This document shows positions 46,032-62,566 of a DNA stretch of 64,000 nt, in pieces. This DNA comes from an uncultured bacterium (lineage in GTDB: Bacteria; Bacillota_I; Bacilli_A; RFN20; CAG-826). A program made the position numbers and the translations under genes. The number at the start of each line of letters is the position of its first letter. Positions within the stretch are counted from its first letter, which is position 1. The stretch is from positions 9,256-73,255 of the forward strand of contig CASEYK010000016.1 of the NCBI GenBank assembly GCA_949292105.1. Direction: 5' to 3'. The notes beneath the pieces were generated by a model that worked only from the letters and a program-made list of their open reading frames with translations, made no database searches and was not told where the DNA came from.

Positions 46032-46108
<77 letters not shown>

Positions 46109-46138
46109 TTTAATTCCCTAGCGCACGAAAAGCGGGTA

Positions 46139-46168
46139 GTGGAACAATTGATTAGTTCCACGTTTTTT
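46139..46168 (+). terminator. Terminator-like hairpin between tRNA-Ile and tRNA-Val
   Basis: GTGGAAC-aattgatta-GTTCCAC followed by GTTTTTT. Confidence 0.5.
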
Positions 46169-46219
46169 AAAAACAGAATGATTGAATTTCCTCTCCCTTT
46201 TTGTCGGTAGTGAAGAAAC

Positions 46220-46294
46220 GGACACTTAGTTCAGCGGGAGAACGCTTCCTTCACACGGAAGAGGTCACAGGTTCAATCCCTGTAGTGTCCACCA
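46220..46294 (+). tRNA. tRNA-Val (anticodon CAC by manual reading), CCA encoded
   Basis: Acceptor GGACACT/AGTGTCC, D-stem GTTC/GAAC, anticodon stem CTTCC/GGAAG with loop UUCACAC, T-stem ACAGG/CCTGT with loop TTCAATC, A73, CCA. Confidence 0.7.
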
Positions 46295-46302
46295 TCTAAT
46301 GT

Positions 46303-46379
46303 GCCGTCTTAGCTCAACCAGGCAGAGCAACTGATTTGTAATCAGTAGGTTGTAGGTTCGATTCCTATAGACGGCACCA
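46303..46379 (+). tRNA. tRNA-Thr (anticodon UGU), CCA encoded
   Basis: Acceptor GCCGTCT/AGACGGC, D-stem GCTC/GAGC, anticodon stem ACTGA/TCAGT with loop UUUGUAA, T-loop TTCGATT, A73, CCA. Confidence 0.75.
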
Positions 46380-46390
46380 TTATTATTTAT

Positions 46391-46475
46391 GCAGCTGTGG
46401 CGGAACTGGCAGACGCACTAGACTTAGGATCTAGCGAGGAAACTCATGCAGGTTCAATTCCTGTCAGCTGCACCA
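46391..46475 (+). tRNA. tRNA-Leu (anticodon UAG), class II with a long variable arm, CCA encoded
   Basis: Acceptor GCAGCTG/CAGCTGC, anticodon stem CTAGA/TCTAG with loop CUUAGGA, ~13-nt variable arm, T-stem GCAGG/CCTGT, A73, CCA. 85 nt long. Confidence 0.8.
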
Positions 46476-46690: not shown

Positions 46691-48031
46691 ATGAGAAATT
46701 TTAAATTACCAATTTTATTGTCTCTTGTCATGGCGGGCGCTTTAGCAATGACTGGATGTGGAAAATCATCAGAGGATGAAAGCGGCGTCAAGATTATTAC
46801 TGTTTGGGTTCACAAGAATGAAACAGAAGATGAAGGCAAAATTTACAAGCAAATTCAAACTAATTTCAACAATGCTGGGTTAACAACTTCAACTGGTCTC
46901 CAATTAAAAATGTCTATGTCGTTTTGGGGTTCAACTCTTGAAGATAAAATTAATGCTTCTATTATGACTAATTCCTTACCGGATATCATCGCTGTAGATA
47001 GTTCAGATGTAGCAGCAAAAGTGTATAACGATATTATTGTTTCATTTGATGAGTATTTAGATTCTGAAACAAAAAATTCCTATGTCGATAGTGTAATTCA
47101 ACAAGGCACGATCGATGGCAAAATGTACTTTTTATCGGGTATGGAAGCTCCGGGAGGCTTGTACTACAATAAAACCCTTCTTAAATCAGTTGGTTACACT
47201 GATGATGATTTTGGAACATGGGAAAATCCTTGGTCTTGGAAAGATGTTCACGAGGCTCAAGAAAAATTAAAAGCTGCAGGTTTAGAATATCAAATCGCAC
47301 TAAACCAAAATTTTGGCACAGATGGAAATATGTATTTATATTCCGGTCTCGTTTATTCAGCTGGTGCAACATTTGGTGAAGAAAATCATGTTACTGAAGC
47401 TTTGACAACTGACGAAGCCATTGCGGGCATATCACAACTTGAATTATTCTATTCAAACGAAGGTTTGTCGAGCAATGAATCTTGGGTCTATAGCGGAACA
47501 AATGAAAATGCTTTTGCTTCAGAACTCATTCCTTTTGAAATTCACGGACCTTGGGATGCTAGAAAAATTAAAAAAGCTGATTCCAACTTTAAAAATGAGT
47601 ATGGTATCATGCCATATCCTGTTTATGAAGATGAAAATGGCAATAAGAGCGACATAATTGCTATTCCTTGTGGATCGTATGGTTTTGGTATCACTAATGA
47701 CTGTAAAAATGTTGAAGCAGCAACTATTGCTTTGACCTATTTAACTGGTGCTGATGCGTCAAAAATGATGTATGACGCTATCGGAACTTTCCCAACAAAC
47801 AAAGCTTTATTGGAAAGTATGGATGAATTTAAAAGTGGACCAGAAAAAGATTTAGCTGATTATTTGGTTAAAAATCAATACACAAGGCCACAAATGGTTA
47901 AATATCCAATATTAAAAGATGCTTATGGCGAAGTTTTAAACTATATCAAAAATATGAACCTCGTCTCTAATTACAACTTAGAACAACAAATCAGAGAACA
48001 AATGACAAGAGTCGATGACGCAAGAGCATAG
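46691..48031 (+). CDS. Carbohydrate ABC transporter substrate-binding lipoprotein (SBP family 1)
   Basis: Signal peptide with an AMTGC lipobox. ~446 aa, with the usual SBP_bac_1 topology. First gene of the sugar locus. Confidence 0.8.
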   Translation: MRNFKLPILLSLVMAGALAMTGCGKSSEDESGVKIITVWVHKNETEDEGKIYKQIQTNFNNAGLTTSTGLQLKMSMSFWGSTLEDKINASIMTNSLPDIIAVDSSDVAAKVYNDIIVSFDEYLDSETKNSYVDSVIQQGTIDGKMYFLSGMEAPGGLYYNKTLLKSVGYTDDDFGTWENPWSWKDVHEAQEKLKAAGLEYQIALNQNFGTDGNMYLYSGLVYSAGATFGEENHVTEALTTDEAIAGISQLELFYSNEGLSSNESWVYSGTNENAFASELIPFEIHGPWDARKIKKADSNFKNEYGIMPYPVYEDENGNKSDIIAIPCGSYGFGITNDCKNVEAATIALTYLTGADASKMMYDAIGTFPTNKALLESMDEFKSGPEKDLADYLVKNQYTRPQMVKYPILKDAYGEVLNYIKNMNLVSNYNLEQQIREQMTRVDDARA

Positions 48032-48035
48032 CAAT

Positions 48036-48971
48036 ATGAAAATTGAAAATGTTGTTGCCAAAAGAAAACGAAATTCTTTTACACTCGGCAAGACTGAATA
48101 CAATACAAAAGAAGCATTGGCTGGTATCTTGTTTTTAGCGCCTTGCTTTATTCTTGCGGTAATCTTTGTTTTTCTACCAATTGTCATTTCGCTGGCATAT
48201 GCTTTCACTGATGCTAATATGTTGCGGCTAAATAAAGCTGAATTTATTTGGTTTGATAATTTTATAAGGGCCTTCAATGATGTTGAAATTAGGAACGCCT
48301 TAAAAAACACACTCATTTTCGTTTTAGGTGTTATGCCATTACAATTTGGTACAGCGTTAGGCTTAGCTTTGCTGCTCAATAAAATAAAAAGATTTAACAC
48401 TTTCTTTAGATGGGCATTCTTTGCTCCTGTGATGCTCTCTTTGGCTGTGACTTCTATGTTGTGGATGAATCTATTAAATCCACAAGAAGGACTGATTAAT
48501 ACTTTTTTATTGGCACTTGGAGCAAATCCAATGCTGTTTTTAGAAGATCCTAACCAAGCGATGGGTTGCATAATTTTTATTTCTGCATGGCAAGGTGCAG
48601 GTTACCAAATGTTGATCATTTTAAGTGGTTTAAAAAATATTCCAAAAGATATGTATGAGGCTGCAAGTATCGATCGCGCTAACAAGTGGCAACAATTTTT
48701 GCATGTAACCCTTCCATCGTTAAAACCAACCCTTGTTTTCGTTTTTATTACAATGCTTATTGGTGCTTTTAGGATTTGCGTTCAGCCGATGATTATGACT
48801 GGTGGTGGACCTTTGGGTTCAACTATGACAATGTCATATTACATTTACAAAACTGGCGTTGAATACCGCGATGTAGGTTATTCAAGTGCTATTGCGCTCT
48901 TATACACAATCATTATTGCAACAATTTCATTAACATTAAGAAAAGTGTTAGGAGGGGACAACCAAGCATAA
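48036..48971 (+). CDS. Carbohydrate ABC transporter permease (MalF/UgpA-like)
   Basis: 6-TM protein with an EAA-like loop (ASIDRANKWQQFLHVTLPSLKP). The ORF-track start at 48015 overlaps the SBP; ATG 48036 is preferred. Confidence 0.8.
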   Translation: MKIENVVAKRKRNSFTLGKTEYNTKEALAGILFLAPCFILAVIFVFLPIVISLAYAFTDANMLRLNKAEFIWFDNFIRAFNDVEIRNALKNTLIFVLGVMPLQFGTALGLALLLNKIKRFNTFFRWAFFAPVMLSLAVTSMLWMNLLNPQEGLINTFLLALGANPMLFLEDPNQAMGCIIFISAWQGAGYQMLIILSGLKNIPKDMYEAASIDRANKWQQFLHVTLPSLKPTLVFVFITMLIGAFRICVQPMIMTGGGPLGSTMTMSYYIYKTGVEYRDVGYSSAIALLYTIIIATISLTLRKVLGGDNQA

Positions 48972-48972
48972 T

Positions 48973-49884
48973 ATGGAAAATATCAATGTCAATCAAATTC
49001 CAACCCTTCACAAACCTAGAAAGAAAATTTCGTTTGGCAAAATCGTTATCAAAATTTTATTTGCTCTTCTTTGCCTCGCTCTAGCTTTTATCTTCTTATT
49101 TCCAGTTGTTTGGATGGTTTCCAATTCATTTAAAACAGATGAACAAGTGTACGCTCAAATGACGAGCATTTGGACCTTTTTTCCTCCTTCTTGGAATATA
49201 AGTGAATGGTTTGTATCATATATCAAACTATTCCAAACATTTGAATATTTTGGTCGTTCAATTTTAAATTCAATTTTATATTGTACAGTTACTATTGTTG
49301 CTGTTTTGGTCATCAATTCTTTAGCGGGATATGCTCTAGCAAGATTTAAATTTCCTGGCAACAAAGCCATGACAACCGTTATTTTGCTTTTGATGATTAT
49401 TCCTGTTGAAACAAGTATCGTTCCAACATACTTAATTCTTTATTACTTAGGATTATTGAGTGAACCTGTAAATATTATTGGTTACTTATTGCCCGGCTTT
49501 GCTTCGCTTTTTTATACATACATGTTTAGACAATATTTTTTGGGTATGCCAATTGAAATAGAAGAAGCAGCACGCATTGATGGATGCTCGAGAATTGGCG
49601 TGTTTTTCCGCATGATTGTTCCATTAGCTAAACCTATTTTTGCAACAGTAGCTATTTTCACATTTATGGGACAATGGAATGAGTACATCTTTGCACAATT
49701 TATGTTTCCTAATCCTGCATATCAACCGCTTCAAGTATTTTTACAACTAGTTAATACAGCCACCCCGAAAGATATTGGTGTTGTTATGGCTTCTTTGACC
49801 TTTTCAACAATTCCAATCGCCTTAGTTTACATCTTCGCTCAAAAATATATCGTCGAAGGAGTCAGTTTTACTGGTCTAAAATAA
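48973..49884 (+). CDS. Carbohydrate ABC transporter permease (MalG/UgpE-like)
   Basis: 6-TM protein with an EAA loop (EEAARIDGCSRIGVFFRMIVPLAKP). Confidence 0.8.
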   Translation: MENINVNQIPTLHKPRKKISFGKIVIKILFALLCLALAFIFLFPVVWMVSNSFKTDEQVYAQMTSIWTFFPPSWNISEWFVSYIKLFQTFEYFGRSILNSILYCTVTIVAVLVINSLAGYALARFKFPGNKAMTTVILLLMIIPVETSIVPTYLILYYLGLLSEPVNIIGYLLPGFASLFYTYMFRQYFLGMPIEIEEAARIDGCSRIGVFFRMIVPLAKPIFATVAIFTFMGQWNEYIFAQFMFPNPAYQPLQVFLQLVNTATPKDIGVVMASLTFSTIPIALVYIFAQKYIVEGVSFTGLK

Positions 49885-49885
49885 T

Positions 49886-52249
49886 ATGAAAAAAAGTTTA
49901 TCCTTATTAACCGCTGTCTTTTCTCTTTCAATCGTTCTTTCGGCTTGTCAATCTAATGATGACGAGCCTAATTATAATAAACATTTGCTTGCTTATTTTG
50001 AATTCAAACAAAATAATCAAAGCCTTTTAATTGATTCTTTAAATAATGTCGATCCTGTGAATGTTAATTATCATTTACTCGATTCATCGACTATTTCAGA
50101 ACCTAAAAATGTTCAATTTAAAGAAGGCATTTTCAATGAAGCAATGGTTTTTGATGGATATTCAACTTTTGCGAGTATCGAAAGCAGTGAATTAATGATT
50201 TCAGGGTCTAATTTTTCTATCAGCGCTTGGATTGCTCCTCGCTCATATAATTGGTCAGATCAAAACAGCGATGATGATTTAATTCAAGCCATTGCTAGCC
50301 AATATTACAAAGATGATTCATTCGCTATGGGCTTTCAGCTTGGTTATAGACGCGATGGCAAGGTCACATTTGGGGTTGGGACTGAAAGCGGATGGTATCA
50401 ACTATATGATGAAGGTAGCCCAATCAATCGTTATGAATGGAACCATATCTTAGCTACTTTTGATGGTGTAAATGGATCAATTCGATTATATGTGAACGGC
50501 AAAATCGCCAATCGTCTAGAAATTGAAAAAAATAGTAAAATTGTCGGATGCGATTTGCCTCTGTTAATTGGTAAAAACACTGTCTCAACTTCTTCAGGGG
50601 ATTGTTCAGAAGGAGTGATTTCTGGTCTACTTGATGAACTGAGATTGTACAATACTACGCTCTCTTATGATGACTACAAAGATTATTATTCTTCATGCCT
50701 AGTTAACGGCGAAATCAAAGATGTAAATTTTGAAGACGTATGGATTCAAAATACTTTAACTGACGATTTATACAAACCACAATACCATGGTGGCCCATAC
50801 GAACATTGGATGAATGAACCTCACGCCCCAATTTATTATAACGGTGTCTATCATTTATTTTTCCAATTCAATGAAAATGGTCCATATTTTAATGATGCCA
50901 AAGGAATTGCATGGGGCCATTTAACAAGTACAGACATGGTCGAATGGACACCTAGAAAAGAAGTAATTGTGCCAACGGCTAATACTGTTTGTCCAGATGG
51001 AGTTTGGTCGGGAGGGGCAACTTATGATAAAGATGGCGTCCCAGTGTTATTTTTTACTGCCGGTGACTATACTCATTCTGGCATGATTTCAAATCAAAAT
51101 ATTGGTCTTGCAACACCTAAAGATTTAAGCGATCCATATTTGACAGAATGGGTCGTTTCGGATGAGTTGGCCGTCGAACAAAAAAGTGGGCAAGGAAGAA
51201 CGGGCGAATTCCGCGACTGCCACTTAATTAAAGATGGCGAAAATTATTATATGTTAGTTGGTAGTGGCGATGAAAATTCAAATCGCGGGACAGTTTTAAT
51301 CTACACGACTAATACAAGTAAAAATGATTATTTTCACAACTGGGAATATAAAGGTCATTTATTTGACTATGCAAATAATGATTCAAAATATGGCACATCA
51401 TGGGAATTGCCGGTGCTTCTCCCCTTAAAAGATGAAAACGGGAATGACTCAAACAAATGGGTTTTAATAATCTCCCCAGCACCGGCTTCCACCGCTGATA
51501 ATAACATCATCTATTGGATTGGCGAGTTTGACAAAAATACATGTCGATTTGTCTCTGATTTTGCTGGTCCTAGAAGAATGGACTATGGTAAAAATGTTTT
51601 TACTGGTCCGAGCGGCTTTATCGATCCAAACACTGGTGAGGCTATGATGTTTTCAATTATGCAATCGCAAAGAGAATCAAGCGATTTAGCAAGTTCAGGT
51701 TGGTCACATAATGTTGGGTTAACAAGACGCTTAAGATACAATTCTCAAACAAACGATTTAAGTATTTCAATTATTGATAATGTTTCCAATTTATCAACCG
51801 GCGTTTTATACGACGCAACTAATTGTACAATTAGTGATATCAACCGAGCGATTTCTAATATTAAATCAGACATGTTTAATATCAAAATCGTTATCAACAA
51901 TCTAACTTCAAAATTTTCAATTAAAACAAGAATGACAGAATCACAAAGCGAATATACACTAATCTACGCTGATCCATCTAGCAATATAGTTGGAGCAGTT
52001 AATACATTAAATTTGAATAATTCATCATTAAGTTCAGGTGAATTTATTGGAAATATAAATGATTGCAGTCAATTATCAATAGATTTATATGTCGACCGCA
52101 GCCAAATCGAAGTAGTGTTCAATGATGAAAAGACAATCTCGTGCCGAAGTTATCCAAAGGATTTAAACGCTCTATTAACGCAACTTGAAGGTAGTGAAGA
52201 CATAGTAATCGACAGTTTTGTTATGAGTCAAATGAGGTCTATTTTCTAA
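49886..52249 (+). CDS. Surface lipoprotein: concanavalin/LamG-like lectin domain + GH32 beta-fructofuranosidase (levanase/inulinase-like)
   Basis: LSAC lipobox. N-terminal LamG_3-like domain (..LDELRLYNTTLS..). GH32 motifs WMNEPHAPIYYNGVYHLFFQ (WMNDPNG block), FRDCHL (RDP) and a C-terminal beta-sandwich (IDLYVDRSQIEVVFNDEKT). Confidence 0.8.
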   Translation: MKKSLSLLTAVFSLSIVLSACQSNDDEPNYNKHLLAYFEFKQNNQSLLIDSLNNVDPVNVNYHLLDSSTISEPKNVQFKEGIFNEAMVFDGYSTFASIESSELMISGSNFSISAWIAPRSYNWSDQNSDDDLIQAIASQYYKDDSFAMGFQLGYRRDGKVTFGVGTESGWYQLYDEGSPINRYEWNHILATFDGVNGSIRLYVNGKIANRLEIEKNSKIVGCDLPLLIGKNTVSTSSGDCSEGVISGLLDELRLYNTTLSYDDYKDYYSSCLVNGEIKDVNFEDVWIQNTLTDDLYKPQYHGGPYEHWMNEPHAPIYYNGVYHLFFQFNENGPYFNDAKGIAWGHLTSTDMVEWTPRKEVIVPTANTVCPDGVWSGGATYDKDGVPVLFFTAGDYTHSGMISNQNIGLATPKDLSDPYLTEWVVSDELAVEQKSGQGRTGEFRDCHLIKDGENYYMLVGSGDENSNRGTVLIYTTNTSKNDYFHNWEYKGHLFDYANNDSKYGTSWELPVLLPLKDENGNDSNKWVLIISPAPASTADNNIIYWIGEFDKNTCRFVSDFAGPRRMDYGKNVFTGPSGFIDPNTGEAMMFSIMQSQRESSDLASSGWSHNVGLTRRLRYNSQTNDLSISIIDNVSNLSTGVLYDATNCTISDINRAISNIKSDMFNIKIVINNLTSKFSIKTRMTESQSEYTLIYADPSSNIVGAVNTLNLNNSSLSSGEFIGNINDCSQLSIDLYVDRSQIEVVFNDEKTISCRSYPKDLNALLTQLEGSEDIVIDSFVMSQMRSIF

Positions 52250-54303
52250 TGAAAAAGAATGTGTCCAAATTGCTTACAGTTTTATTGTTATTAAGCTGCG
52301 TTTCTTGTGGAAACCAGAATAATTTTGAAGAATATTCTTTTGCTAATGCTGGATTTGAAACTGGTCTATTGACAAATTGGACAGCGACTGGAGATGCCTT
52401 TTCTGATAACAGTGTTACAATTGCAGATTCAAGCAAGGATAAAATTCATGTTGTTGGTAATTTCTATTTAAATGGTGAATCGAGTGGAAACGCCGCCACC
52501 GGCACCCTTCAGTCCACAACATTTAAACTAAATGGAAATGGCAAAATTGGTTTTATGATTGGTGCTGGTAAAAATCAGTCGCTTGTTTATGTTTCTTTGC
52601 ATTTAGAAGACACTGGTGAAGAAATAGGAAGAGTTAGCAATAAATTTTTTAATAGCGAAAATCCAAACAATCGCATGTATCGCATTATCCTTAATGCTTC
52701 GGAATACATTGGTGAAAATGTTTATTTAAAAATTGTCGATAATGATGCTCAAAACGATGGGTATAACTATATCATGGTTGATGATTTTATTGTTTCTTAT
52801 TTAGGAGATGAAGATGATGGCTCGCTGGTAAGCGATGCAAGAAAATATACCGAAGCAAATAAAAATAATGTTGGCAATGAATATCGCCATACATATCACT
52901 TAATGCCAACCATCGGTTGGATGAATGATCCGAATGGATTTACATACTATGATGGTTATTATCATTTATTTTATCAACATAATCCTTATTCATCCAATTG
53001 GGATACTATGCATTGGGGACATGCTATTTCGAAAGATTTAGTCGTATGGGAAGATGCTGGTGTCGCCTTGGCTCCAGATAAAACATATGATAAACTCGGT
53101 GTCTACTCTGGAGGAGCGATTGAGAAAGATGGAACTCTTAATTTGTTATATACATGTGTCGGTGATGGTGGGGTTCAGCAGCAAGCTCTAGCTACTAGCT
53201 ACGATGGTTATAATTTCACTAAACGCGCGAGTAATCCTGTTATTTCTTCTTCACAAAGGCTCAATTCGAGAGTTACTGACTTTAGAGATCCGTATTTATT
53301 TGAAAAGGATGGCGTTTACTACACCTTAATCGGAGGAAAGCTTGAAGGCGAAGGTGGACAATTAATCTTGTATTCTTCTAAAGATTTAATGAACTGGAAA
53401 ACCATTGGTAGTGTTTATTCTTCAACTTTGACGGGCGGCGGCATGTTTGAATGCCCAAATTTAGCCTTTTTTGGTGATAAAGAAGTTATCATTACTTCTC
53501 CCCAATCAATTCGAGATAGCGAAATATCAAATTATCAAAACATTCATTCAGTCACATATCAGATTGGCGACATCGATTTTGAAAATGGCGTTTTTACAAA
53601 TGAATTTGGTCAAGATTCCATGGAGGAATTTGACAAAGGATTCGATTTTTATGCCACACAAGTAATAAGTGAGGAAGATCGAGTTATTATGCTCGCTTGG
53701 ATGAATATGTGGTCGAGGAGTTATCCAACTGCAACCGATCAATGGGCAGGTGAAATTACTTTGCCTAGAGAATTAGAACTGGTTGATGGACATATTTATC
53801 AAAAACCGATACGCGAAATTGAAAATTACTATCAAAACGAGGTTATTTTGAGCAATATTGATGCAAATAATGAAAATATTGCATTAGATTTTAGAGGTAA
53901 TACTCTTCATTTAAAAGCAGAAATAGATGTATCAAGTTTAAATGGCGGGAAGAGTGGTTTTCATCTATTTAAAGGTTCGGATGAAGAGACAAGCATTTAT
54001 TATGATGATTCACTGGGGATGGTTGTCTTTAATCGAAAAAATAGTGGAGTTGAAATCGATTCTTTTGATGATGATGGCGAGCTAAATGTCCGCTACGCAT
54101 CTATTGAGCCGATTAATGATGTTATTAAATTAGAATTCTTTTTAGATGTTTCGAGCATCGAAGTTTTTATTAATGATGGTTACTATACCATGAGTGGCTT
54201 GGTTTACCCAAGTGAAGGTAGTGATGGAGTTGAATTTTTTGCCACTAATGGCAGTGCTACTTTAAATTCACTCGTCAAACATGATGTGATTGTGGGAGCG
54301 TAA
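52249..54303 (+). CDS. Surface lipoprotein: N-terminal CBM-like beta-sandwich module + GH32 beta-fructofuranosidase
   Basis: LLSCVSCG lipobox. ~155-aa N-terminal module opening NAGFETGLLTNWTATGDAF and ending YIGENVYLKIVDND..DDFIV. GH32 motifs GWMNDPNG, FRDPYLF, MFECPNL and the C-terminal LDVSSIEVFINDG. Confidence 0.85.
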   Translation: MKKNVSKLLTVLLLLSCVSCGNQNNFEEYSFANAGFETGLLTNWTATGDAFSDNSVTIADSSKDKIHVVGNFYLNGESSGNAATGTLQSTTFKLNGNGKIGFMIGAGKNQSLVYVSLHLEDTGEEIGRVSNKFFNSENPNNRMYRIILNASEYIGENVYLKIVDNDAQNDGYNYIMVDDFIVSYLGDEDDGSLVSDARKYTEANKNNVGNEYRHTYHLMPTIGWMNDPNGFTYYDGYYHLFYQHNPYSSNWDTMHWGHAISKDLVVWEDAGVALAPDKTYDKLGVYSGGAIEKDGTLNLLYTCVGDGGVQQQALATSYDGYNFTKRASNPVISSSQRLNSRVTDFRDPYLFEKDGVYYTLIGGKLEGEGGQLILYSSKDLMNWKTIGSVYSSTLTGGGMFECPNLAFFGDKEVIITSPQSIRDSEISNYQNIHSVTYQIGDIDFENGVFTNEFGQDSMEEFDKGFDFYATQVISEEDRVIMLAWMNMWSRSYPTATDQWAGEITLPRELELVDGHIYQKPIREIENYYQNEVILSNIDANNENIALDFRGNTLHLKAEIDVSSLNGGKSGFHLFKGSDEETSIYYDDSLGMVVFNRKNSGVEIDSFDDDGELNVRYASIEPINDVIKLEFFLDVSSIEVFINDGYYTMSGLVYPSEGSDGVEFFATNGSATLNSLVKHDVIVGA

Positions 54304-54305
54304 AA

Positions 54306-55739
54306 ATGAAGAAGAAAAATTATCGCCCGCTTTTACATATCACTCCAGACCATGGTTGGATAAATGATCCAAATGGCTTTTCATTTTTTAATGGTTTGTA
54401 TCATGTTTTCGCTCAATATTATCCGCATGAACTTAGGTGGGGCCCAATGCATTGGGCACATTTTGTCAGTACTGATTTAATCAATTGGAAACAAGTTCAA
54501 AACGCTCTAAAACCCGATCAGCCTTATGATCAAGATTTTGGATGCTTTTCGGGCAGTGCATTATCCATAAATAATAAGCACATACTTGCCTATACAGGTG
54601 TGGCAAATAACAAGCAAACGCAATGTTTAGCGACTTCAACCGACGGACTTAATTATGTCAAACATCCGTTAAATCCAATTATTGATGAGCGATTATTACC
54701 TTCTGGATATGATGTTGCGAACTTTAGGGATCCTAAGATTTTTTATCGGCACGGTTCTTTTTATATTTTAGTTGGCGCCAAACGAACCGACGGCATTTCT
54801 TCTTTGCTCCTTTTTAGAGGCGATTCGTTTGATCATGTTGAATTTGTTCGCTCTATTTTTGATATGTCAGGTCTCGGTGCAGGAATGTTGGAATGCTGTG
54901 ATATTTTATTCTTAAATGAAAAGGATGATCGATGCATACTTTTGTGTTCACCTCAATTTAAAAAATCACCATGTCCATACCATTATCAAAATATTCATTC
55001 TACTCTTGCTTTATTAGGTGAATTAGATTTTGCAAATTGTTGTTTTATTCCTTCCAGCCCTGAAATTGAATTAGATCTTGGCTTTGATTTTTATGCAGCA
55101 CAAACTCTTGCTCGTGATAATCATTTTTATCTAATTGCGTGGGAATCAATGTGGGATCGAAATTATCCAAGTGAACAGTGTGGTTTTGTCGGTCAATTAA
55201 CATGTCCCCGCGAATTAACAATTATCGATAATTCCATCCATCAGAAGTTTGTTTCTTCTCTAGATAATTATTTTGCTGAAGTTAATTGTTTTGAAGAATT
55301 GCTGGTTGACCACCAAAAAGATTTTTTTAGTCAAGATGAAGTGAGAAGATATCGTTTTGAAGTTGAAGCAGATGGCAATTATTCAATTATTTTATATTCA
55401 AATGGTAAAACAGGTTATGTAATTAATTCCGATATAAAAACAAAACTTGTGCAATTCAATCGTTCTTGTTCGAATGAAAAAATTTCAAATGTTAATGGCA
55501 CTCAAGCCGATGTGCGCAATATTCGCATTGAAGAAGGATGCCAAACTATCAGTTTTGACATTTTAATTGATCATTGCTCGTGCGAAATTTTAATTAACAA
55601 CGGGAGATACTCTTTCACTTCATTGTTTTATCCCGATGGTGAATTTGGCATTTCGTTTATGAATAAGGCGAACAAAATGATTATAAAAAATTTAGTGATT
55701 AGCGGATTAGTAAACAAGGAGGCTTACAAAGATGATTAA
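54306..55739 (+). CDS. Cytoplasmic GH32 sucrose-6-phosphate hydrolase / beta-fructofuranosidase (ScrB-like)
   Basis: No signal peptide. Motifs HGWINDPNG, FRDPKIF, MLECCDI and the C-terminal IDHCSCEILINNG. Confidence 0.8.
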   Translation: MKKKNYRPLLHITPDHGWINDPNGFSFFNGLYHVFAQYYPHELRWGPMHWAHFVSTDLINWKQVQNALKPDQPYDQDFGCFSGSALSINNKHILAYTGVANNKQTQCLATSTDGLNYVKHPLNPIIDERLLPSGYDVANFRDPKIFYRHGSFYILVGAKRTDGISSLLLFRGDSFDHVEFVRSIFDMSGLGAGMLECCDILFLNEKDDRCILLCSPQFKKSPCPYHYQNIHSTLALLGELDFANCCFIPSSPEIELDLGFDFYAAQTLARDNHFYLIAWESMWDRNYPSEQCGFVGQLTCPRELTIIDNSIHQKFVSSLDNYFAEVNCFEELLVDHQKDFFSQDEVRRYRFEVEADGNYSIILYSNGKTGYVINSDIKTKLVQFNRSCSNEKISNVNGTQADVRNIRIEEGCQTISFDILIDHCSCEILINNGRYSFTSLFYPDGEFGISFMNKANKMIIKNLVISGLVNKEAYKDD

Positions 55740-57945
55740 AAAGCATAGTTTTATTATTCCTTTACTTTTTACAGCATTGTTATTCGTTGGTGGCTGTTCA
55801 TCTAACAAAGATGATTCATCATCAATTTATGATGATGAGATTCGAAATGGCAGTTTTGAAAATGGCTTAACTTCTTGGACCATTGGAGGCCTTGGAGGTT
55901 TTAGCGAAGAAGACGTTTCAACAATTGATACATTTTCTGATGGCCAACCAACCGAAAAAGTTGGAAATAGTTTTTATGCTGGAGCTACTTCTTCACTACC
56001 TTCATTTACTGGCACATTAACTTCTGAGCCATTCAATTTAGGGGGAGTTGGTTATATTTCCCTTAAATTAGGAGCAGCTAAAAACGGAGAAAAATGTTAC
56101 ATCGAATTTTATGAAGTTGGAAAAGATGATGTTCCTTTATCTTTCTATCTAGATTACGATACTTCAACTGTTTATACCAAACTTATTAATACTGATTTTA
56201 ATGGAACAACAATCCGCTCATTAATGATGAGACATGTTGTCGATTTGCGTGAATATTTTGAAAAAGATATTTATATTAAAATTACCGATAATGACACTGG
56301 ATCAGATTACACTGATTATTCTTTTGTTAATTTAGATGATTTTAGAGTTTTAAAAACAGCTCAGGAAAAAAATGATGCTTTAGTTGAAAGAGCTGATCAA
56401 TTGCTTCAACACGGAGAAGATGACATTGATGCTGAAAATCCTGTCGAACAACTCCGTAATGGTGGTTTTGAAACAGGCGATACATCATATTGGAAAGCTA
56501 TTTCTGGTGATGCATTTTTAAGCGAAGATATGGTTATTTCTTCAAGCGAAATGTATTGGGGCAACAGGCTTTATCACGCTGATGGAAATTATTTCTTAAA
56601 CAACATAAGTAGCGGTGAAGAAAAAGTTGGCAAAATGCGCTCAGAAAAGTTCATTGTTACAGATCAGGGCGATAATCAATCATACGCTACTTTCATGATG
56701 GGTGCGGCCAAACAATCAACAACCTATGTTGCGGTTAATGATGCTGAAACAGGTAGCGAGCTTATTCGAGTTTATAACAAAGCGTTTAAGGATCCAGGAT
56801 TAGCTCAAGGATTAGTAAGATACTACATTGATTTAAGTGAGTATATTGGTCAAACTCTTTACTTTACGATTGTCGATAATGCTACTGGCGATGGATTCGC
56901 ATTTATTGAAGTTGATGATTTTGAAATAAATCTATCTCAACAAGAAGTAATAAACGGCATCGCTGAACTTCGCCTGTGGGCAAACGATTTGGATGATATG
57001 GAAGCAAAATCAGATTATATCTCTGCATACAATGGGGGAATTTCTTTCCCTATTTCTGGAAATGCTCCAGTGGTTATAGAAGAAAATGGCTATGCCTTAT
57101 CATTAACAGTTGCTCCTAAGGTTATGAATTTAAACCAATTATTTAATCAAGTTATAGTTGTGGATGATTATACAGCAACTGATGATTTGACAAAAAATAT
57201 AGAAGGAATAACCTTTAATGGTGATGAATTAGATGGCGATTATACCAGTTTTGAATTAAATGTCGGAGAATATATAGTCTCGTTGTCTTTTACTGATACT
57301 TATCAAAATAAGACAACAACTAAAGTAAAAATAACAGTAGTTGAGAGTTTAAGTTACGATAGCACTATTGAAAACGGCGACTTTGAGTACGGGAATTTAA
57401 ATGGTTGGACAGTTGTGAGCGGAAATGTTAACACGAGCAATGCTATTGATAATGCCTCTACATTCTGGGCCGAAGCCATTCCATTCAACAAATCAGGAGA
57501 GTATTTCTTCAATGGTTGGAATGCTTGCGAAGTTGAGGCGGATGGATATTCTCTTCGCTCGACAACATTTACGCTAGGTGGCGTCGGTCAAATTAGTTTC
57601 AAACTTGGAGGTCATTCGAGCAAATTAGTTGTCAGAGACGAAGCTGATAATGTTATTGCCGAATATCGAAATTATGCTTTTGCTGATGTGAATTTTCCAA
57701 ATGTTAGCGAAGGTTGTCGCTTGGCAACAATGAATACATATGTTGCTGACTTATCAGAATATATTGGTGAAAACCTTTATATAGAAATCGTTGATGAAGT
57801 AATTTCTGAAGGATGGGCAGTTGCATTCTTTGACGAGATTAATGTTTATCACGAACAAACAATCAACATAGCCGAGGAGTTTGATGTTGTTGAACAATAT
57901 GGCGTTCAAACAAAACTGCCATGGCTAGAAGCTAAAAGTAATTAA
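55732..57945 (+). CDS. Non-catalytic surface lipoprotein built from three tandem CBM4_9-like beta-sandwich modules
   Basis: FVGGC lipobox. Three ~160-aa repeats. Each opens N-G-x-F-E-x-G (IRNGSFENGLTSW / LRNGGFETGDTSYW / IENGDFEYGNLNGW). Each contains F.LGG.G.IS.KLG and ends E-Y-I-G-[EQ]-x-L-Y-x-x-I-V-D...DDF. No catalytic motif. Confidence 0.6.
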   Translation: MIKKHSFIIPLLFTALLFVGGCSSNKDDSSSIYDDEIRNGSFENGLTSWTIGGLGGFSEEDVSTIDTFSDGQPTEKVGNSFYAGATSSLPSFTGTLTSEPFNLGGVGYISLKLGAAKNGEKCYIEFYEVGKDDVPLSFYLDYDTSTVYTKLINTDFNGTTIRSLMMRHVVDLREYFEKDIYIKITDNDTGSDYTDYSFVNLDDFRVLKTAQEKNDALVERADQLLQHGEDDIDAENPVEQLRNGGFETGDTSYWKAISGDAFLSEDMVISSSEMYWGNRLYHADGNYFLNNISSGEEKVGKMRSEKFIVTDQGDNQSYATFMMGAAKQSTTYVAVNDAETGSELIRVYNKAFKDPGLAQGLVRYYIDLSEYIGQTLYFTIVDNATGDGFAFIEVDDFEINLSQQEVINGIAELRLWANDLDDMEAKSDYISAYNGGISFPISGNAPVVIEENGYALSLTVAPKVMNLNQLFNQVIVVDDYTATDDLTKNIEGITFNGDELDGDYTSFELNVGEYIVSLSFTDTYQNKTTTKVKITVVESLSYDSTIENGDFEYGNLNGWTVVSGNVNTSNAIDNASTFWAEAIPFNKSGEYFFNGWNACEVEADGYSLRSTTFTLGGVGQISFKLGGHSSKLVVRDEADNVIAEYRNYAFADVNFPNVSEGCRLATMNTYVADLSEYIGENLYIEIVDEVISEGWAVAFFDEINVYHEQTINIAEEFDVVEQYGVQTKLPWLEAKSN

Positions 57946-57955
57946 GGAGGAAATT

Positions 57956-59785
57956 ATGATGAAAAAGAATTTACTTTTAGGATTTGGCATCGTTGCTCTT
58001 GCTTCTGCTGCATTTGGAATATTAAGCAACGAGTCAAAAACAATTTCGTCAGTTAAAGCGGAAGATAATTCAACACTAGTGACATATATTCCTTTTAACA
58101 ATGACAATTTCACAATTGTAACAGATGAAGGAGTTGAAACAGAACTAGGTGATACATCAGATTGGGTTACTGGTCGATATGGTACATTTTGGAACTATAG
58201 GTATTTCAACGCTATGGATGATTTTTATGATGGAAATAGACAAGAAAGTTGGACTGGAACTATTACATCTAGAACATGGGTTCAACAAAATAAATATGTC
58301 ACTTTCACTCTTGGCGGTAACTCTCAGAATAAAGTTTTAATTAAGAATGAGAGTGGAGAAGTTGTTGCAACTGCAAACAATAATTTATTTAATGATCCGT
58401 ACTTATCAGTCAATATGATTACTAAAGTTGTTACTGTTCCAGAAGAATATATTGGTCAGACACTTCATCTTGAAATTATCGATTCAACAACAAATGGTTT
58501 TGGTATGACTACTTTTGGTGCGTTAAAGGTTAACCAAACTTTAGATGATGTTGCTCAAACAGTTGTTGCCCATATTGCTGAAACAAAATGGATTGTTGAC
58601 CTCAATGATGATTCTGCCCCGGCTAATACAAATACTCTTGCGGCTGACTATATCATCAATGTATATCGCACAGCCGATGAGTATGAACTTGTTAGAAATA
58701 ACGGTTTAATAATTAATGAAGATGGCAGTTTTACATCGCCATTAACTGATGTCGATGAAGGTTTTGAATCAAGTGGTTTAACGAATTGGGCGTATGACAT
58801 CGAATATTCAGACAATGGTAACGAAGAGGAACCTGCCAACTACTTTATTCCTTTCGCTTCTTCTATTTCGGAAGAAACATATGCTGGATGGATAGAACAC
58901 ATGCCTTTTAATAAAACCGGCAACAAATTTTACAAAGGATGGGAAGACGGATTTGATGAGGCAGCGAAGTATCGTTTATTATCTGCTCCATTCACGCTTT
59001 CTGGCACAGGACTTATTTCGATTAAAATGGCTGGCAATTCAGCCGCTTTACAAATTTTAGATGCATCCACACATGAACAATTGATGGAAGTCAACAATCA
59101 AGTATTTCTTGACAATGTTGATACTGTTGTTGGTGGCGGCAGATTATGCACTATGGTTCGTCATATCATTGATGCCAGCGATTATCTCGGCCAACAAATT
59201 GTCATCGCTCTTGCTGATAACCGAACAGGCGGTGGCTGGGGATGTGTCTTCTTTGATGAATTAATTACAAACTATCAGGCTTTGCCTTCGTTAAAATTGG
59301 ATACAATTGTTCAAAGTGGGACTATTAATGGCGAAGATGTCACTAATTATGGCGTTATTCGAGACACATATGTTGGATCTATGGATTCAACTTTTGGCCA
59401 AGCGTATACATTTATGAACAATTATTATGATACTTTGAGAAATTCAACTAATAATTTTTCATATTGTAGTATAATCTCTAGTGAAGAAGTCAAAAATGTT
59501 TTGGAAAGTTATGAAGCACTTCCTGAAGAAGTTCAAACAATTGTCCAAAACAGTGATGACTATTCATATACTGGCTCTATTTATTCAAGCGAAGTTCAAT
59601 TGTACAAAGTCATTGAGACAATCAACTACATTAATGGTCAAAACGACAATGCTGGAAATTTAAAATCATCATTTGGTGTTTTACCTGTTAAGAATAGCAT
59701 CGCGATTGCCATTGGTGTTTTATCGTTGACAGTATTCCTTTTCGCGGTTATTTTTGTCAGTAGAAAGAAAAAAACACATAACTAG
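57956..59785 (+). CDS. Membrane-anchored surface protein with two copies of the same CBM-like module (signal peptide + C-terminal TM anchor)
   Basis: Cleavable-type signal peptide. Two modules (..TFTLGGNSQNKVLIKN...EEYIGQTLHLEIID.. and ..FTLSGTGLISIKMAGN...SDYLGQQIVIALADN...FFDEL). C-terminal LPVKNS + hydrophobic helix + RKKKTHN. Confidence 0.55.
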   Translation: MMKKNLLLGFGIVALASAAFGILSNESKTISSVKAEDNSTLVTYIPFNNDNFTIVTDEGVETELGDTSDWVTGRYGTFWNYRYFNAMDDFYDGNRQESWTGTITSRTWVQQNKYVTFTLGGNSQNKVLIKNESGEVVATANNNLFNDPYLSVNMITKVVTVPEEYIGQTLHLEIIDSTTNGFGMTTFGALKVNQTLDDVAQTVVAHIAETKWIVDLNDDSAPANTNTLAADYIINVYRTADEYELVRNNGLIINEDGSFTSPLTDVDEGFESSGLTNWAYDIEYSDNGNEEEPANYFIPFASSISEETYAGWIEHMPFNKTGNKFYKGWEDGFDEAAKYRLLSAPFTLSGTGLISIKMAGNSAALQILDASTHEQLMEVNNQVFLDNVDTVVGGGRLCTMVRHIIDASDYLGQQIVIALADNRTGGGWGCVFFDELITNYQALPSLKLDTIVQSGTINGEDVTNYGVIRDTYVGSMDSTFGQAYTFMNNYYDTLRNSTNNFSYCSIISSEEVKNVLESYEALPEEVQTIVQNSDDYSYTGSIYSSEVQLYKVIETINYINGQNDNAGNLKSSFGVLPVKNSIAIAIGVLSLTVFLFAVIFVSRKKKTHN

Positions 59786-59797
59786 TAGGTAATAAGG

Positions 59798-60754
59798 ATG
59801 GGAAAAACAATTGTCGATATCGCAAAGATTGCGAATGTTAGCAAATCGACCGTATCTAGATATTTGAACAATGGATATGTGTCGAAAGAAGCTCAAGAGA
59901 GAATCAAACAAGCGATTGAATCAGAAAATTATGAGCAGAATTCATTTGGAAGAATGCTCAAACTGAATCGCTCCTTTGCTATCGCTTTATGCGTGCCGAT
60001 GATTTCCCATCCTTTTTTCGCAAAAATCACTGAAGAAATTGAAAACTGCGCATATGAATTTGGCTATAAACTGCTAGTCACTGATTCAGATAATAATCGT
60101 GCTAGAGAAGAAGAATTTATTCGTATGGTTTATAAAAATCAGGTCGATGGTATTATTTTTATCACTCATAACAAGTACGAATGTTTTGATTCTTCCTTAC
60201 CAATTGTTACAATTGATCGTCTATTTGGCGATAATGTCCCATGCATCACTTCTGATAATTACAACGCTACATATAACGCTATTAAATATCTCTTTGAAAA
60301 GGGATGCCACAATATTGGTTTTATCGGAGGCAGACCCCTTGTTAATTCAGAAGTGCTAGAACGATATCATGCTTATCTTGATGCTTGCAAAGATTTTGGT
60401 TTGCAGACATATGTCTCTTATGGAGATTTTAGGCATGGTGAAGAATACACTCATTCCAATGAATTTTTGCATAAGTATACAAATTTAGATGCCGTGTTTG
60501 CTACCTCTGATACATTTGGTTTTACAATTTATCGCGTGGCTACCGAAATGAAATATCCACAGCAATTAAAAATTATTACTTACGACGGCTGTATGAGCGA
60601 TTGGATTCAAAATCCAGCTTTTACAACCATCCGTCAAGATTTGAAAAGTATGGCTTTTAAAGTCGTGGATACTTTAATTAAAAGAATCAACAAAAAACAA
60701 GTTGAAAGCAAAATTGTTGTGCCAACCGAATTCATTATTGGAGAAACTACATAA
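59798..60754 (+). CDS. LacI-family transcriptional regulator (likely sucrose/fructan operon repressor)
   Basis: N-terminal HTH TIVDIAKIANVSKSTVSRYLNN, plus a periplasmic-binding-protein-like sugar-binding domain. Confidence 0.8.
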   Translation: MGKTIVDIAKIANVSKSTVSRYLNNGYVSKEAQERIKQAIESENYEQNSFGRMLKLNRSFAIALCVPMISHPFFAKITEEIENCAYEFGYKLLVTDSDNNRAREEEFIRMVYKNQVDGIIFITHNKYECFDSSLPIVTIDRLFGDNVPCITSDNYNATYNAIKYLFEKGCHNIGFIGGRPLVNSEVLERYHAYLDACKDFGLQTYVSYGDFRHGEEYTHSNEFLHKYTNLDAVFATSDTFGFTIYRVATEMKYPQQLKIITYDGCMSDWIQNPAFTTIRQDLKSMAFKVVDTLIKRINKKQVESKIVVPTEFIIGETT

Positions 60755-61680
60755 TGATTTTAATCGTCGGTGAAATATTGATGGATGTTTTTAAAGAACA
60801 TAACAATGTTGAGTCCCACCCAGGTGGAGCCCCTTTCAATGTTGCTTGCAATGTTGCTTTTTTTGGTGGCGATGTTGCTTTCTATGGATGCGTTGGCAAC
60901 GATGACTATGGAAACCAATTATATGAATTCTCAAAAACAATAGCTTTAAAAAAGAATTTGGTTCAACGACTAGGAAAGCACCATACAACTGTTGCGCTCG
61001 TCAGTTTAAATCAAGGTGAAAGATCATTTCGTTTTTTAAGAGATGACGGCACTGATTATCAATTTGATTTTGAAAAATTCAAAACAATTGACTTAAGCGA
61101 AATTAATATTGTCCATTTCGGTTCTTTAATGCTATCACATCAGTCTGGACGAGAATTTTTAAACAAAGCAATTGAATATTTACGTCAATTCCCTCATATT
61201 CAAATTTCATTTGATGTAAACTATCGCGATGATATTTTTGAAGACACTAATTCTAAATCGTTTTATTTAAATGTTATTGAGAAATCCGATTTGGTTAAAA
61301 TTAGCGAAGATGAAGTTCACTTTTTATCAGGATGTTCATCGATAGAAGAAGGTTTAAATCAAATTTTTCATTCACGACAGCATGTTTTTTTATCACTTGG
61401 TCAAGAAGGTTCATGCTATTACCACGAACAGAAACTTATAAAAGCAAAAACAATTAAAGTTCGCCCAGTTGATACGACAGGCGCTGGTGATAGTTTTTAT
61501 TCCTACATTTTGTACTGTTTGAATAAGGATAAGAATATTTTATTGGATACCATCAAGATTCAAAACATGTTGGAATGTGCAAATATTGTCGGTGCGTATG
61601 CTACAACAAAAAAAGGCGCTATTGGTGTTGTACCATCAGTAGATGTAATAGTGGAAATCCAAAAAAATGAAAAGAAATAG
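60754..61680 (+). CDS. PfkB-family fructokinase
   Basis: N-terminal LIVGEILMDVF...GGAPFNVA and the C-terminal DTTGAGDSF anion hole. Sits in a GH32 locus. Confidence 0.75.
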   Translation: MILIVGEILMDVFKEHNNVESHPGGAPFNVACNVAFFGGDVAFYGCVGNDDYGNQLYEFSKTIALKKNLVQRLGKHHTTVALVSLNQGERSFRFLRDDGTDYQFDFEKFKTIDLSEINIVHFGSLMLSHQSGREFLNKAIEYLRQFPHIQISFDVNYRDDIFEDTNSKSFYLNVIEKSDLVKISEDEVHFLSGCSSIEEGLNQIFHSRQHVFLSLGQEGSCYYHEQKLIKAKTIKVRPVDTTGAGDSFYSYILYCLNKDKNILLDTIKIQNMLECANIVGAYATTKKGAIGVVPSVDVIVEIQKNEKK

Positions 61681-62566
61681 TTTATATAATTTTTTCAATA
61701 AAAATAATGATAAGCCAAATTCCGATCGACTCCCATCAAATCGCTTTAAAGCTTATTTTGATATTCTTCGCAATCGATTTGGAAAAGTTGTTTTGCTCTC
61801 ACTCATTACAACTATTTTCTTTTTGCCACTGATTATCTTTTCGTTTTTTTGGAATGTTTACAGCAATTATTCTATTGAACAATTTGCCGTCGAAAACTCT
61901 GATCAAACTCTTATTTTATTTCAGAAATTTTCTCTTATTTCTATGCAATATTTATTTTCTATACCTCTTTTTATCATTGGCTTTATTGGCTTGGGAGGTA
62001 CTTTTTATGTCAGCAAGAAAATGGTGTTTCAAGAAGGAGATATTTTCCTGTGGAGCGATTTTTTCTCTGGCGTTAAGTCAAATATTAAATCATCCTTATT
62101 GAGCGGTGTATGTTTTTCTGTTTATCTATTAATTTACTTTATGAATATCTATTTTTATCCGATTGTTAGCGAAATTCCGTTTGCTGTTAAAATCATCCTT
62201 ATTATTTTACTGAGCATTATATTGGTTTTTGTTACTAGTTTTTGCTTATTTGTTCTCGCTAGTGCATCTATTTATCAGTTCAAATTTGTACCAACAGTTA
62301 AAAACAACGCTCTTTTAGCAGCTATCTTATTTCCAACGAATATTTTGATGTGCCTTCTCAGCCTCTTCTTTTTTATTGGTGCATTTTTATTGCCATACAT
62401 TATTATTCAAAGCATATTTTTATTGCTTATCATTTTATTTGGTTTTTCACATCTTGCTATTTCATTTAATCTTTATGCATTCAAAATGTTTGATAAACAT
62501 ATCAATATTCGGTATTCTCAAGAACTTACCGACAAAGGTTTAGATAAAGGCCAAAAGGAGGAATAA
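61667..62566 (+). CDS. DUF624/YesL-like integral membrane protein (sugar-operon associated)
   Basis: The N-terminus (..LYNFFNK..RF...FDILRNRFGKVVLLSLI..) and the 5-6 TM layout resemble the YesL family commonly linked to carbohydrate ABC operons. Confidence 0.45.
   Translation: MKRNSLYNFFNKNNDKPNSDRLPSNRFKAYFDILRNRFGKVVLLSLITTIFFLPLIIFSFFWNVYSNYSIEQFAVENSDQTLILFQKFSLISMQYLFSIPLFIIGFIGLGGTFYVSKKMVFQEGDIFLWSDFFSGVKSNIKSSLLSGVCFSVYLLIYFMNIYFYPIVSEIPFAVKIILIILLSIILVFVTSFCLFVLASASIYQFKFVPTVKNNALLAAILFPTNILMCLLSLFFFIGAFLLPYIIIQSIFLLLIILFGFSHLAISFNLYAFKMFDKHINIRYSQELTDKGLDKGQKEE

Follow-up and report, generated by a model that had tools for sequence, protein, structure and literature searches.

The window, i.e. 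the whole 64,000-nucleotide stretch of DNA that was analysed, encodes six homologous modules of about 165 residues that, judging from their sequences, are very likely members of the CAZy family CBM38 within a locus for the utilisation of fructans in an uncultured gut bacterium of the Bacillota with low GC content. One copy lies at the N-terminus of the enzyme GH32B, three lie in the protein P4 and two in the protein P5. The assignment is based on homology to P0489, the putative orthologue of the family founder, and on published annotations. The homology of the modules to the founder type of CBM38, their fold and their conserved linkage to GH32 are what the analysis shows. The genes and modules concerned are the following:

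46691..49884, + strand: ABC sugar importer, a solute-binding lipoprotein and two permeases (Pfam SBP_bac_1 and, twice, BPD_transp_1)
49886..52249, + strand: GH32A, lipoprotein with Laminin_G_3 and a GH32 core of CFTase/endo-inulinase type (WMNEP motif), no CBM38 (Pfam)
52249..54303, + strand: GH32B, lipoprotein with a probable CBM38 module, a GH32 catalytic domain of exo type and the C-terminal domain of GH32 (Pfam GH32N 8e-90, GH32C 4e-30)
52333..52812, + strand: GH32B module (aa 29-188, profile envelope; 129 bits with the independent profile)
54306..55739, + strand: GH32C, a GH32 without signal peptide and presumed to be cytoplasmic (Pfam GH32N 2.5e-76; sequence start MKKKNYRPLLHITPDHGWINDPNG)
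55732..57945, + strand: P4, non-catalytic lipoprotein of 737 aa with three probable CBM38 modules (its signal peptide ends with FVGGC as lipobox)
55834..56370, + strand: P4 module 1 (aa 35-213, profile envelope; 82 bits)
56446..56946, + strand: P4 module 2 (aa 239-405, profile envelope; 109 bits)
56947..57360, + strand: P4 spacer (aa 406-543), a pair of helices and, after them, a small beta domain (DSSP on the model)
57361..57864, + strand: P4 module 3 (aa 544-711, profile envelope; 113 bits)
57956..59785, + strand: P5, secreted protein of 609 aa with an N-terminal signal sequence, two divergent probable CBM38 modules and, at the C-terminus, a transmembrane anchor
58088..58549, + strand: P5 module 1 (aa 45-198, profile envelope; 30 bits; N-terminal strand degenerate)
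58745..59284, + strand: P5 module 2 (aa 264-443, profile envelope; 55 bits)
59798..61680, + strand: LacI-family regulator and PfkB-family sugar kinase, the latter presumed to be a fructokinase (Pfam LacI/Peripla_BP; PfkB 1.9e-43)

The window proteins are related to each other in pairwise BLASTP comparisons (25-40% identity over 80-230 residues, E = 1e-5 to 3e-23), and P5 module 2 is 40% identical to P4 module 3. The copies were also searched with an independent profile made up of 318 modules taken solely from distant CFTase-type GH32 enzymes, from which the window sequences and the full-length orthologues of the window proteins were left out. This profile finds all six copies (E = 6e-36 to 1.5e-5 when a database of one million sequences is assumed) in the places where a preliminary description of this DNA had located them. 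The alignment of the six copies contains the three motifs of the signature reported there, and the suggestion of an old and diverse family agrees with the 4105 representative clusters that match. P5 module 1 is degenerate at its N-terminus: the N-G-x-F-E opening is broken by an insertion and the match is limited to profile positions 38-155. The positions that hardly vary among 41 diverse members of the family are N, F, E, G and W in the opening strand, together with a Ser-x-x-Phe, one Gly, one Asn and two Asp. By analogy with other modules, this conserved signature is probably fold-determining and perhaps forms a structural metal site like that of CBM4/22-type modules; it is uninformative on the ligand.

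For CBM38, formerly X39, binding of inulin and levan was first demonstrated with the cycloinulo-oligosaccharide fructanotransferase (CFTase) of Paenibacillus macerans. In this protein (AAG47946.1), CBM38 corresponds to residues 32-389, which comprise two beta-sandwich domains and bind levan and inulin with low micromolar affinity (PMC10076258). The published supplementary model gives residues 62-70 of the founder as IPQNDMGLS and residues 78-87 as IRNPGFETGD (PMC10076258). P0489, a GH32 protein of P. polymyxa with 1333 aa, has IPKNDMGLS at 62-70 and IRNPGFETGD at 78-87, so that 18 of the 19 founder residues compared match, with identical numbering. These 19 residues suggest that P0489 is the orthologue of AAG47946.1 over its whole length. 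A profile of the modules matches P0489 at 73-248 (188 bits), 258-397 and 1166-1332; the first two of these modules fall almost wholly within the CBM38 region 32-389, the second envelope ending 8 residues beyond it. Judged through P0489, the window modules appear homologous to this founder region, as they are 25-51% identical to the modules of P0489 and other CFTase-type enzymes. The copy nearest to the founder type by sequence is P4 module 3, which reaches 48-51% identity over 168 aa with an N-terminal repeat of Paenibacillus GH32 proteins, module 1 of P0489, P0523 and P0483 (48% for P0489; E down to 4e-47). The GH32B module is 36-40% identical to modules of P0483, P0489 and P0523, P4 module 2 and P4 module 1 respectively share 33-37% and 29% with the CFTase-type module 1, and P5 module 2 shares 28-34% with CFTase-type modules.

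Published annotations point in the same direction. The quoted dbCAN annotation of a Defluviitalea raffinosedens GH32 reads CBM38(44-189) + CBM38(221-367) + CBM38(409-527) + GH32 + CBM38(1313-1448), that is, four CBM38 units of about 120-150 aa each, and the profile matches in P0257, P0483 and P0475, which have the same architecture, mirror these positions. In a GH32 of Pseudoalteromonas, a CBM38 has been reported as an insertion that separates propeller blades IV and V; the profile likewise matches inserts where GH32N is split, with weak scores in P0518 (20-24 bits) and a strong one in P0514 (144 bits). Among the cluster members listed none is explicitly named CFTase, their current names all being "GH32 C-terminal domain-containing protein".

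The association with GH32 is seen in the window both in the fusion of GH32B and in the neighbouring GH32 genes. GH32A is 35% identical to aa 421-1146 of P0489 (752 aa, E = 2e-131). GH32B shows the WMNDPNG, RDP and ECP motifs, its best solved match is the beta-fructofuranosidase 7vco (32% identity), and its layout is common to about 69 orthologues. A GH32 is encoded within 10 kb in 72 of the 79 GTDB loci with a multi-module relative, and 16 of the 31 large module proteins themselves carry GH32. The order LacI, solute-binding protein, two permeases, LamG-GH32, multi-module protein, second multi-module protein and GH32 is recurrent, one frameshifted copy excepted, and LacI and PfkB relatives are found at most 10 kb away in many related loci. 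The 1+3+2 layout of the modules recurs in seven species genomes, and a two-module protein also follows a three-module one in the loci L011-L013, L037 and L049-L051. Together with the Pfam-confirmed genes of the window, this neighbourhood bears out the preliminary reading of the module proteins as surface proteins of a fructan locus. Two related loci have a GH66 (the dextranase family) instead of a GH32, and a branch adjacent to GH66, GH31 and GH97 genes includes proteins with four to six modules; P0060 and P0081 are among the GH66-linked proteins. Since relatives of the module occur in GH66 loci without GH32, family membership alone is no guarantee of fructan specificity.

The beta-sandwich fold proposed in the preliminary description is found in confident AlphaFold2 models of P4 (pLDDT 89.3) and GH32B (pLDDT 94.4, pTM 0.89). 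In GH32B the strands of the module span residues 44-182 and are followed by a helix (193-207). The spacer of P4, which is conserved among orthologues, has helices at 403-418 and 423-436 and strands within 456-536 (DSSP on the model). In the fold search, which had been suggested as a check, the nearest solved structures are type-B CBMs (the porphyran CBM 8xmz, CBM61, CBM16, CBM4 and CBM22), with 8-19% sequence identity to the modules. A Foldseek search with the GH32B model retrieved no solved GH32 carrying this N-terminal module (query TM-score <=0.66).

It is rather unlikely, but deserves consideration, that some copies with a CBM38 fold, especially those of P5 and P4 module 1, do not bind fructans. 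Such copies might be spacers or scaffolds, binders of other glycans, or contacts between surface proteins. The P5 copies indeed score weakly and one of them is without the N-terminal motif. The occurrence of the family beside GH66, GH31 and GH97 genes without GH32 also means that ligand specificity is not fixed in the wider family, and the rigid packing of the GH32B module on its catalytic domain (the pTM given above) implies that it could influence the form of the active site instead of working as a separate lectin. Yet the position of each copy is kept across orthologues with 34-92% identity, which argues for a selected function, and the linkage to GH32 loci is strong. The P4 orthologues, which span this same range of identities, come from many gut MAGs.

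The preliminary description had treated the module as uncharacterised, and a new, unnamed carbohydrate-binding family resembling known CBMs in fold alone would agree with several searches. No Pfam or NCBIfam model of the module reaches its threshold in the five proteins scanned: sub-threshold matches to the opening motif alone were obtained (CBM_4_9, NTTRR-F1), neither P4 nor P5 has any Pfam family at threshold, and CBM_4_9 (PF02018), whose cut-off is 25.9 bits, reaches 19.4 over the 25-residue opening motif of P4 (residues 545-569). Solved structures likewise match in the opening motif alone, as profiles of the six modules and of the 41 modules searched against PDB sequences gave matches that extend no further than the initial 30-50 residues of 2xom and 8xmz. 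These two proteins, TmCBM61 and the porphyran CBM, have the N-terminal N-x-G-F-E-T-G-x-L-x-x-W strand in common with the modules, with 15-19% identity and profile matches of E about 2e-3; the TmCBM61 match (E = 0.0019) covers profile positions 4-56 alone and does not indicate membership of CBM61. Their ligands are beta-1,4-galactan and porphyran respectively, unlike those of CBM38. A new family is nevertheless very improbable, given the homology to CFTase-type GH32 repeats, which include the founder orthologue with its matching numbering, and the published dbCAN annotation, which puts CBM38 units at corresponding positions. Because the homology maps to CBM38, a characterised CBM, an outcome that the preliminary description had itself set against its reading, the module very likely belongs to a known family rather than an unnamed one.

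CBM66, the comparator put forward in the preliminary description, is a different sequence family from the modules. It is represented by PF06439, which has no match at E <= 1 on GH32B, P4 or P5; a CBM66 identity was rejected on this ground, PF06439 matching other GH32 proteins in the same searches. The CBM66 of Bacillus subtilis SacC is, like CBM38, a fructan-binding beta-sandwich appended to a GH32, but forms a distinct sequence family with zero match to the window modules. PF06439 domains do occur in the loci of relatives, even alongside the module in one protein (P0514). As for the suggested HMM comparison, the resemblance of the opening motif to CBM4_9 stands at a sub-threshold level, and neither CBM_4_9 nor PF06439 can be assigned; no match passing the gathering threshold across the domain was found for CBM4_9 (PF02018) or CBM22. 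That the modules belong to CBM66, CBM4_9 or CBM22 can practically be dismissed: the N-G-x-F-E-x-G opening and overall fold do resemble CBM4, CBM22 and CBM61, and CBM66, which is found attached to GH32, is known to bind fructan, but PF06439 does not match, CBM_4_9 stays below threshold and identity to the structural neighbours is low.

With the modules read as CBM38, the domain content and gene order of the locus suggest a mechanism. P4, through its lipid anchor, and P5, through its C-terminal transmembrane helix (C-terminus SIAIAIGVLSLTVFLFAVIFVSRKKKTHN), would display five CBM38 units and capture fructan polymer at the cell surface. The lipoprotein GH32A, with its CFTase/endo-inulinase-type core, would cut the polymer, and the lipoprotein GH32B, whose own CBM38 is predicted to pack rigidly against the exo-type catalytic domain, would trim the chains. 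Oligosaccharides would be taken up by the ABC importer, and breakdown would be completed in the cytoplasm by GH32C and the PfkB kinase under the control of LacI. This scheme supposes that each copy binds fructan, with some linkage preference, and that labour is divided among the proteins. It is plausible that the copies differ in linkage preference, since they fall into conserved subtypes.

CBM38 and fructan utilisation are known; it is the tandem-CBM38 surface proteins that are uncharacterised. Dozens of uncultured species of gut Bacillota encode pairs of such non-catalytic proteins beside their GH32 genes. We tentatively propose, as a possibility that we hold at somewhat less than even, that they are the Bacillota counterpart of the SGBPs of Bacteroidota, with positionally conserved subtypes for different fructan features, and that the GH66-linked branch binds alpha-glucans, for instance dextran. 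The relatives linked to GH66 are a hint of a second class of ligands and, if they do bind alpha-glucans, CBM38 would extend beyond fructans. Since neither Pfam nor NCBIfam has a model for the module, of which no structure has been solved, thousands of proteins are left "hypothetical" in Pfam-based annotation, including those of common human and animal gut fructan loci. Once the CBM38 arrays are recognised, such loci can be read as complete systems for the capture and degradation of inulin or levan, and the confident models and the subtypes of the copies offer targets for solving the structure of a CBM38 for the first time and for mapping specificity. What is understood of fructan utilisation in general is not altered by this.

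Compared with known systems, the window modules are like the CBM38 of the P. macerans CFTase in being homologous, tandem, GH32-linked beta-sandwich units with an N-P/G-G-F-E-T-G opening strand, and they share 28-51% identity with the modules of P0489. The arrangement is different: CFTase-type enzymes have the modules on either side of a LamG + GH32 core within a single polypeptide, two to five being N-terminal and one C-terminal, whereas in the window the CFTase-type core (GH32A) has no modules and these are instead found on an exo-type GH32 and two non-catalytic membrane-anchored proteins. The SGBPs of Bacteroidota are non-catalytic, lipid-anchored, multi-domain glycan binders to which P4-type proteins may be likened in role, and they are encoded, as in the window locus, next to the enzymes that degrade their glycan and to its transporter. 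Their sequences are unrelated to those of the tandem-CBM38 proteins, so that the analogy is one of role alone: the SGBP loci of Bacteroidota have SusC/D, whereas the window locus has an ABC importer and CBM38 repeats as its putative binding units.

The region between 46.7 and 61.7 kb of the window is a single co-directional locus, composed as follows.

First genes of the locus: solute-binding lipoprotein (SBP) and two ABC permeases (Pfam)
49886-52249: GH32A, lipoprotein with Laminin_G_3 and GH32 (Pfam)
52249-54303: GH32B, lipoprotein with a 160-aa N-terminal region without Pfam family, and GH32
After GH32B: GH32C, GH32 without signal peptide
After GH32C: P4, 737 aa, lipobox
After P4: P5, 609 aa, signal peptide and C-terminal transmembrane helix
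Locus end, after P5: LacI regulator and PfkB kinase

The Pfam scan assigned neither P4 nor P5 to a family, and the locus contains no ABC ATPase gene. Ribosomal protein genes and then four tRNAs lie 5' of the locus; therefore, the window is chromosomal DNA. The tRNA cluster occupies 46032-46472, between rplM-rpsI and the beginning of the locus. The GC content of the source organism is about 35%, and P4 and GH32B have their nearest relatives in MAGs that carry the labels Tenericutes, Bacilli or Bacillales. The kinase gene is followed, with an overlap of 14 bases, by the gene of a 299-aa protein (61667-62566), which is predicted to have several membrane helices and has no match in Pfam. On the other strand, an ORF of 197 aa (47978-48571, -) lies almost wholly beneath the first permease gene, with its 3' end beneath the last part of the SBP gene; in all likelihood it is spurious. 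P5 ends (59696-59785) in a hydrophobic helix and, after it, a basic tail (e.g. ...VIFVSRKKKTHN), and so do large GH32 enzymes in related loci (L001, 2-3325, and L008, 2-1246); LPXTG, SLH or cell-wall-binding anchors are not present at the C-terminus of any of these proteins. The remaining secreted proteins of the locus are lipoproteins, and both kinds of anchor fit a host of reduced or absent cell wall.

The preliminary description had proposed that one module is repeated six times in GH32B, P4 and P5, and three analyses bear this out over the nucleotide range that it gave. In BLASTP comparisons among the five proteins, GH32B 33-180 aligns with P4 in three places (E = 3e-22, 2e-18 and 6e-8) and with P5 in two, and P4 579-703 matches P5 312-436 (40% identity, E = 3e-23). 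The limits of the copies were taken from a six-way alignment (A1) and the profile made from it.

GH32B, aa 29-188: one copy
P4, aa 35-213, 239-405 and 544-711: three copies
P5, aa 45-198 and 264-443: two copies

As a guard against circularity, an independent profile was built with 318 modules, all of them from distant enzymes; it recovers all six copies, with 129 bits in GH32B, 82, 109 and 113 in P4 and 30 and 55 in P5. The weakest is the first copy of P5, where the canonical opening strand is lost. The modules sit on three secreted, membrane-tethered proteins.

The AlphaFold2 models of P4 (41 orthologues, pLDDT 89.3) and GH32B (67 orthologues, pLDDT 94.4, pTM 0.89) present every module as an all-beta unit followed by a helix. 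The predicted fold is a CBM4/16/22/61-type jelly roll, in agreement with the CBM4-like beta-sandwich first guessed; MAM domains are also among the structural neighbours, all of which have 8-19% identity. The high pTM of the GH32B model indicates that the placement of its module with respect to the catalytic domain is fixed. No solved GH32 structure has such an N-terminal module, and no PDB sequence matches the module past its first 30-50 residues. The residues conserved in the signature (N, F, E, G and W of the first strand, plus two Asp late in the module) probably serve to keep the fold intact, and may do so by forming a structural metal site like that of CBM4/22-type modules. The ligand is more likely to be contacted by variable loops, such as the W-x-E-x-x-P-F/Y-N-x-x-G-x-Y-x-x-x-G-W loop common to P4 module 3, P5 module 2 and CFTase (cycloinulo-oligosaccharide fructanotransferase) module 1, which is missing in the GH32B module and P4 module 1.

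The module looks unknown because Pfam and NCBIfam score nothing above threshold on it. A search of 1.84 billion representative proteins with a profile made from 41 diverse copies (A4) retrieved 4105 of them at E <= 1e-3 and 1704 when the limit was E <= 1e-10; single proteins contain as many as ten copies. Of 31 proteins taken from the larger matches, 16 also have GH32 and Laminin_G_3. Many such proteins measure 1300-2200 aa, come from Paenibacillus, Cohnella, Bacillaceae and actinobacteria, and carry two to five N-terminal modules, typically with one more past the GH32 C-terminal domain. CBM38 (formerly X39) was founded on residues 32-389 of the P. macerans CFTase AAG47946.1, a region of two beta-sandwich domains with low micromolar affinity for levan and inulin (PMC10076258). 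The AlphaFold model of that enzyme in the supplement reads IPQNDMGLS at residues 62-70 and IRNPGFETGD at 78-87, with confidence >90 beginning at residue 78 (PMC10076258). Over these 19 founder residues, the putative P. polymyxa orthologue P0489 (1333 aa) has IPKNDMGLS and IRNPGFETGD at the exact same positions, and its module matches (73-248 and 258-397) fall almost entirely within the CBM38 region, the second overrunning it by 8 residues. A further relative, P0523, clusters with P0487 (1338 aa, same layout as P0489) and comes from Paenibacillus sp. LX16, for which CFTase secretion was shown. Aligned over 168 residues, P4 module 3 and module 1 of P0489-type proteins share 48-51% identity, and the other window copies are 25-40% identical to CFTase-type modules. 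A quoted dbCAN annotation of a Defluviitalea GH32 places CBM38 at 44-189, 221-367, 409-527 and 1313-1448 around GH32, and the profile gives the same pattern in three relatives (P0257, P0483 and P0475). In a Pseudoalteromonas GH32, CBM38 was described as an insert that separates blades IV and V of the propeller; the profile likewise matches domains inside a split GH32N in P0518 (weak, 20-24 bits) and P0514 (strong, 144 bits). In these proteins, from Knoellia (794 aa) and Priestia filamentosa (1192 aa) respectively, the module is within the GH32 N-terminal propeller domain, which Pfam gives as two pieces; the P0514 propeller also has inserted PF06439 (CBM66-type) domains. CBM66 was rejected as the identity of the module. 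Contrary to the preliminary description, which regarded the family as uncharacterised and assigned it to no named CBM family, the module very probably belongs to CBM38, whose founder has demonstrated fructan binding; the assignment is kept short of certainty because the founder comparison consists of 19 residues read directly.

GH32A is 35% identical to the LamG and GH32 core of P0489 over 752 residues, lacks a CBM38, and has WMNEP in place of the WMNDP nucleophile motif usual in most GH32, a variant known from endo-inulinases. From its sequence, GH32A may be no simple beta-fructosidase but an endo-inulinase or a fructanotransferase. The catalytic domain of GH32B is exo-type, and its best solved relative is a beta-fructofuranosidase (32% identity). 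Its closer relatives include GH32 genes (34-41% identity) of beetles (Aromia, Exocentrus, Rhamnusium), moths (Helicoverpa, Plodia) and a cockroach, in line with the bacterial origin of insect beta-fructofuranosidases. The locus is complete for fructan breakdown and uptake: P4 and P5 would capture fructan at the surface, GH32A would cut it internally, GH32B would trim the chains aided by its own module, the ABC system would admit the oligosaccharides, and GH32C and the kinase would carry out their final processing. Both the CFTase-type core and the ligand of the founder point towards substrates of the inulin type, levan being a further possibility.

A GH32 lies within 10 kb in 72 of 79 loci taken from GTDB species genomes; 39 of the 79 have two or more module-bearing ORFs and seven repeat the exact 1+3+2 layout of the window. 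Most of the hosts are uncultured Bacilli, Clostridia, Oscillospiraceae, Lachnospiraceae and Christensenellaceae from the guts of humans, rabbits, ruminants and chickens, and a few are Paenibacillus and Halobacillus. Human-gut contigs contain a distantly related family of four-module proteins (about 825 aa, 28% identity to P4), with the gene order large GH32, LacI, SBP, two permeases, LamG-GH32, four-module protein, cytoplasmic GH32 and a 779-aa protein which has three modules as well. The same gene order is found around five- and four-module relatives, and in every case a second protein with modules comes next. In at least three loci (L005/L006 8554-12183; L007, identical to L054, 10001-13549; L052), proteins of 4-6 modules adjoin GH66 and an AraC-type regulator, with GH32 absent nearby. 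GH31 and GH97 are also present in L007, and one of these loci is from a Haloplasma contractile MAG. This branch suggests a non-fructan ligand, perhaps an alpha-glucan. The literature search found no paper on the GH66-linked branch or on paired, non-catalytic tandem-CBM38 surface proteins, which are widespread; both merit follow-up. As for the large proteins combining modules with GH32, their layout is the one reported for CFTase, with N-terminal modules and typically one at the C-terminus.
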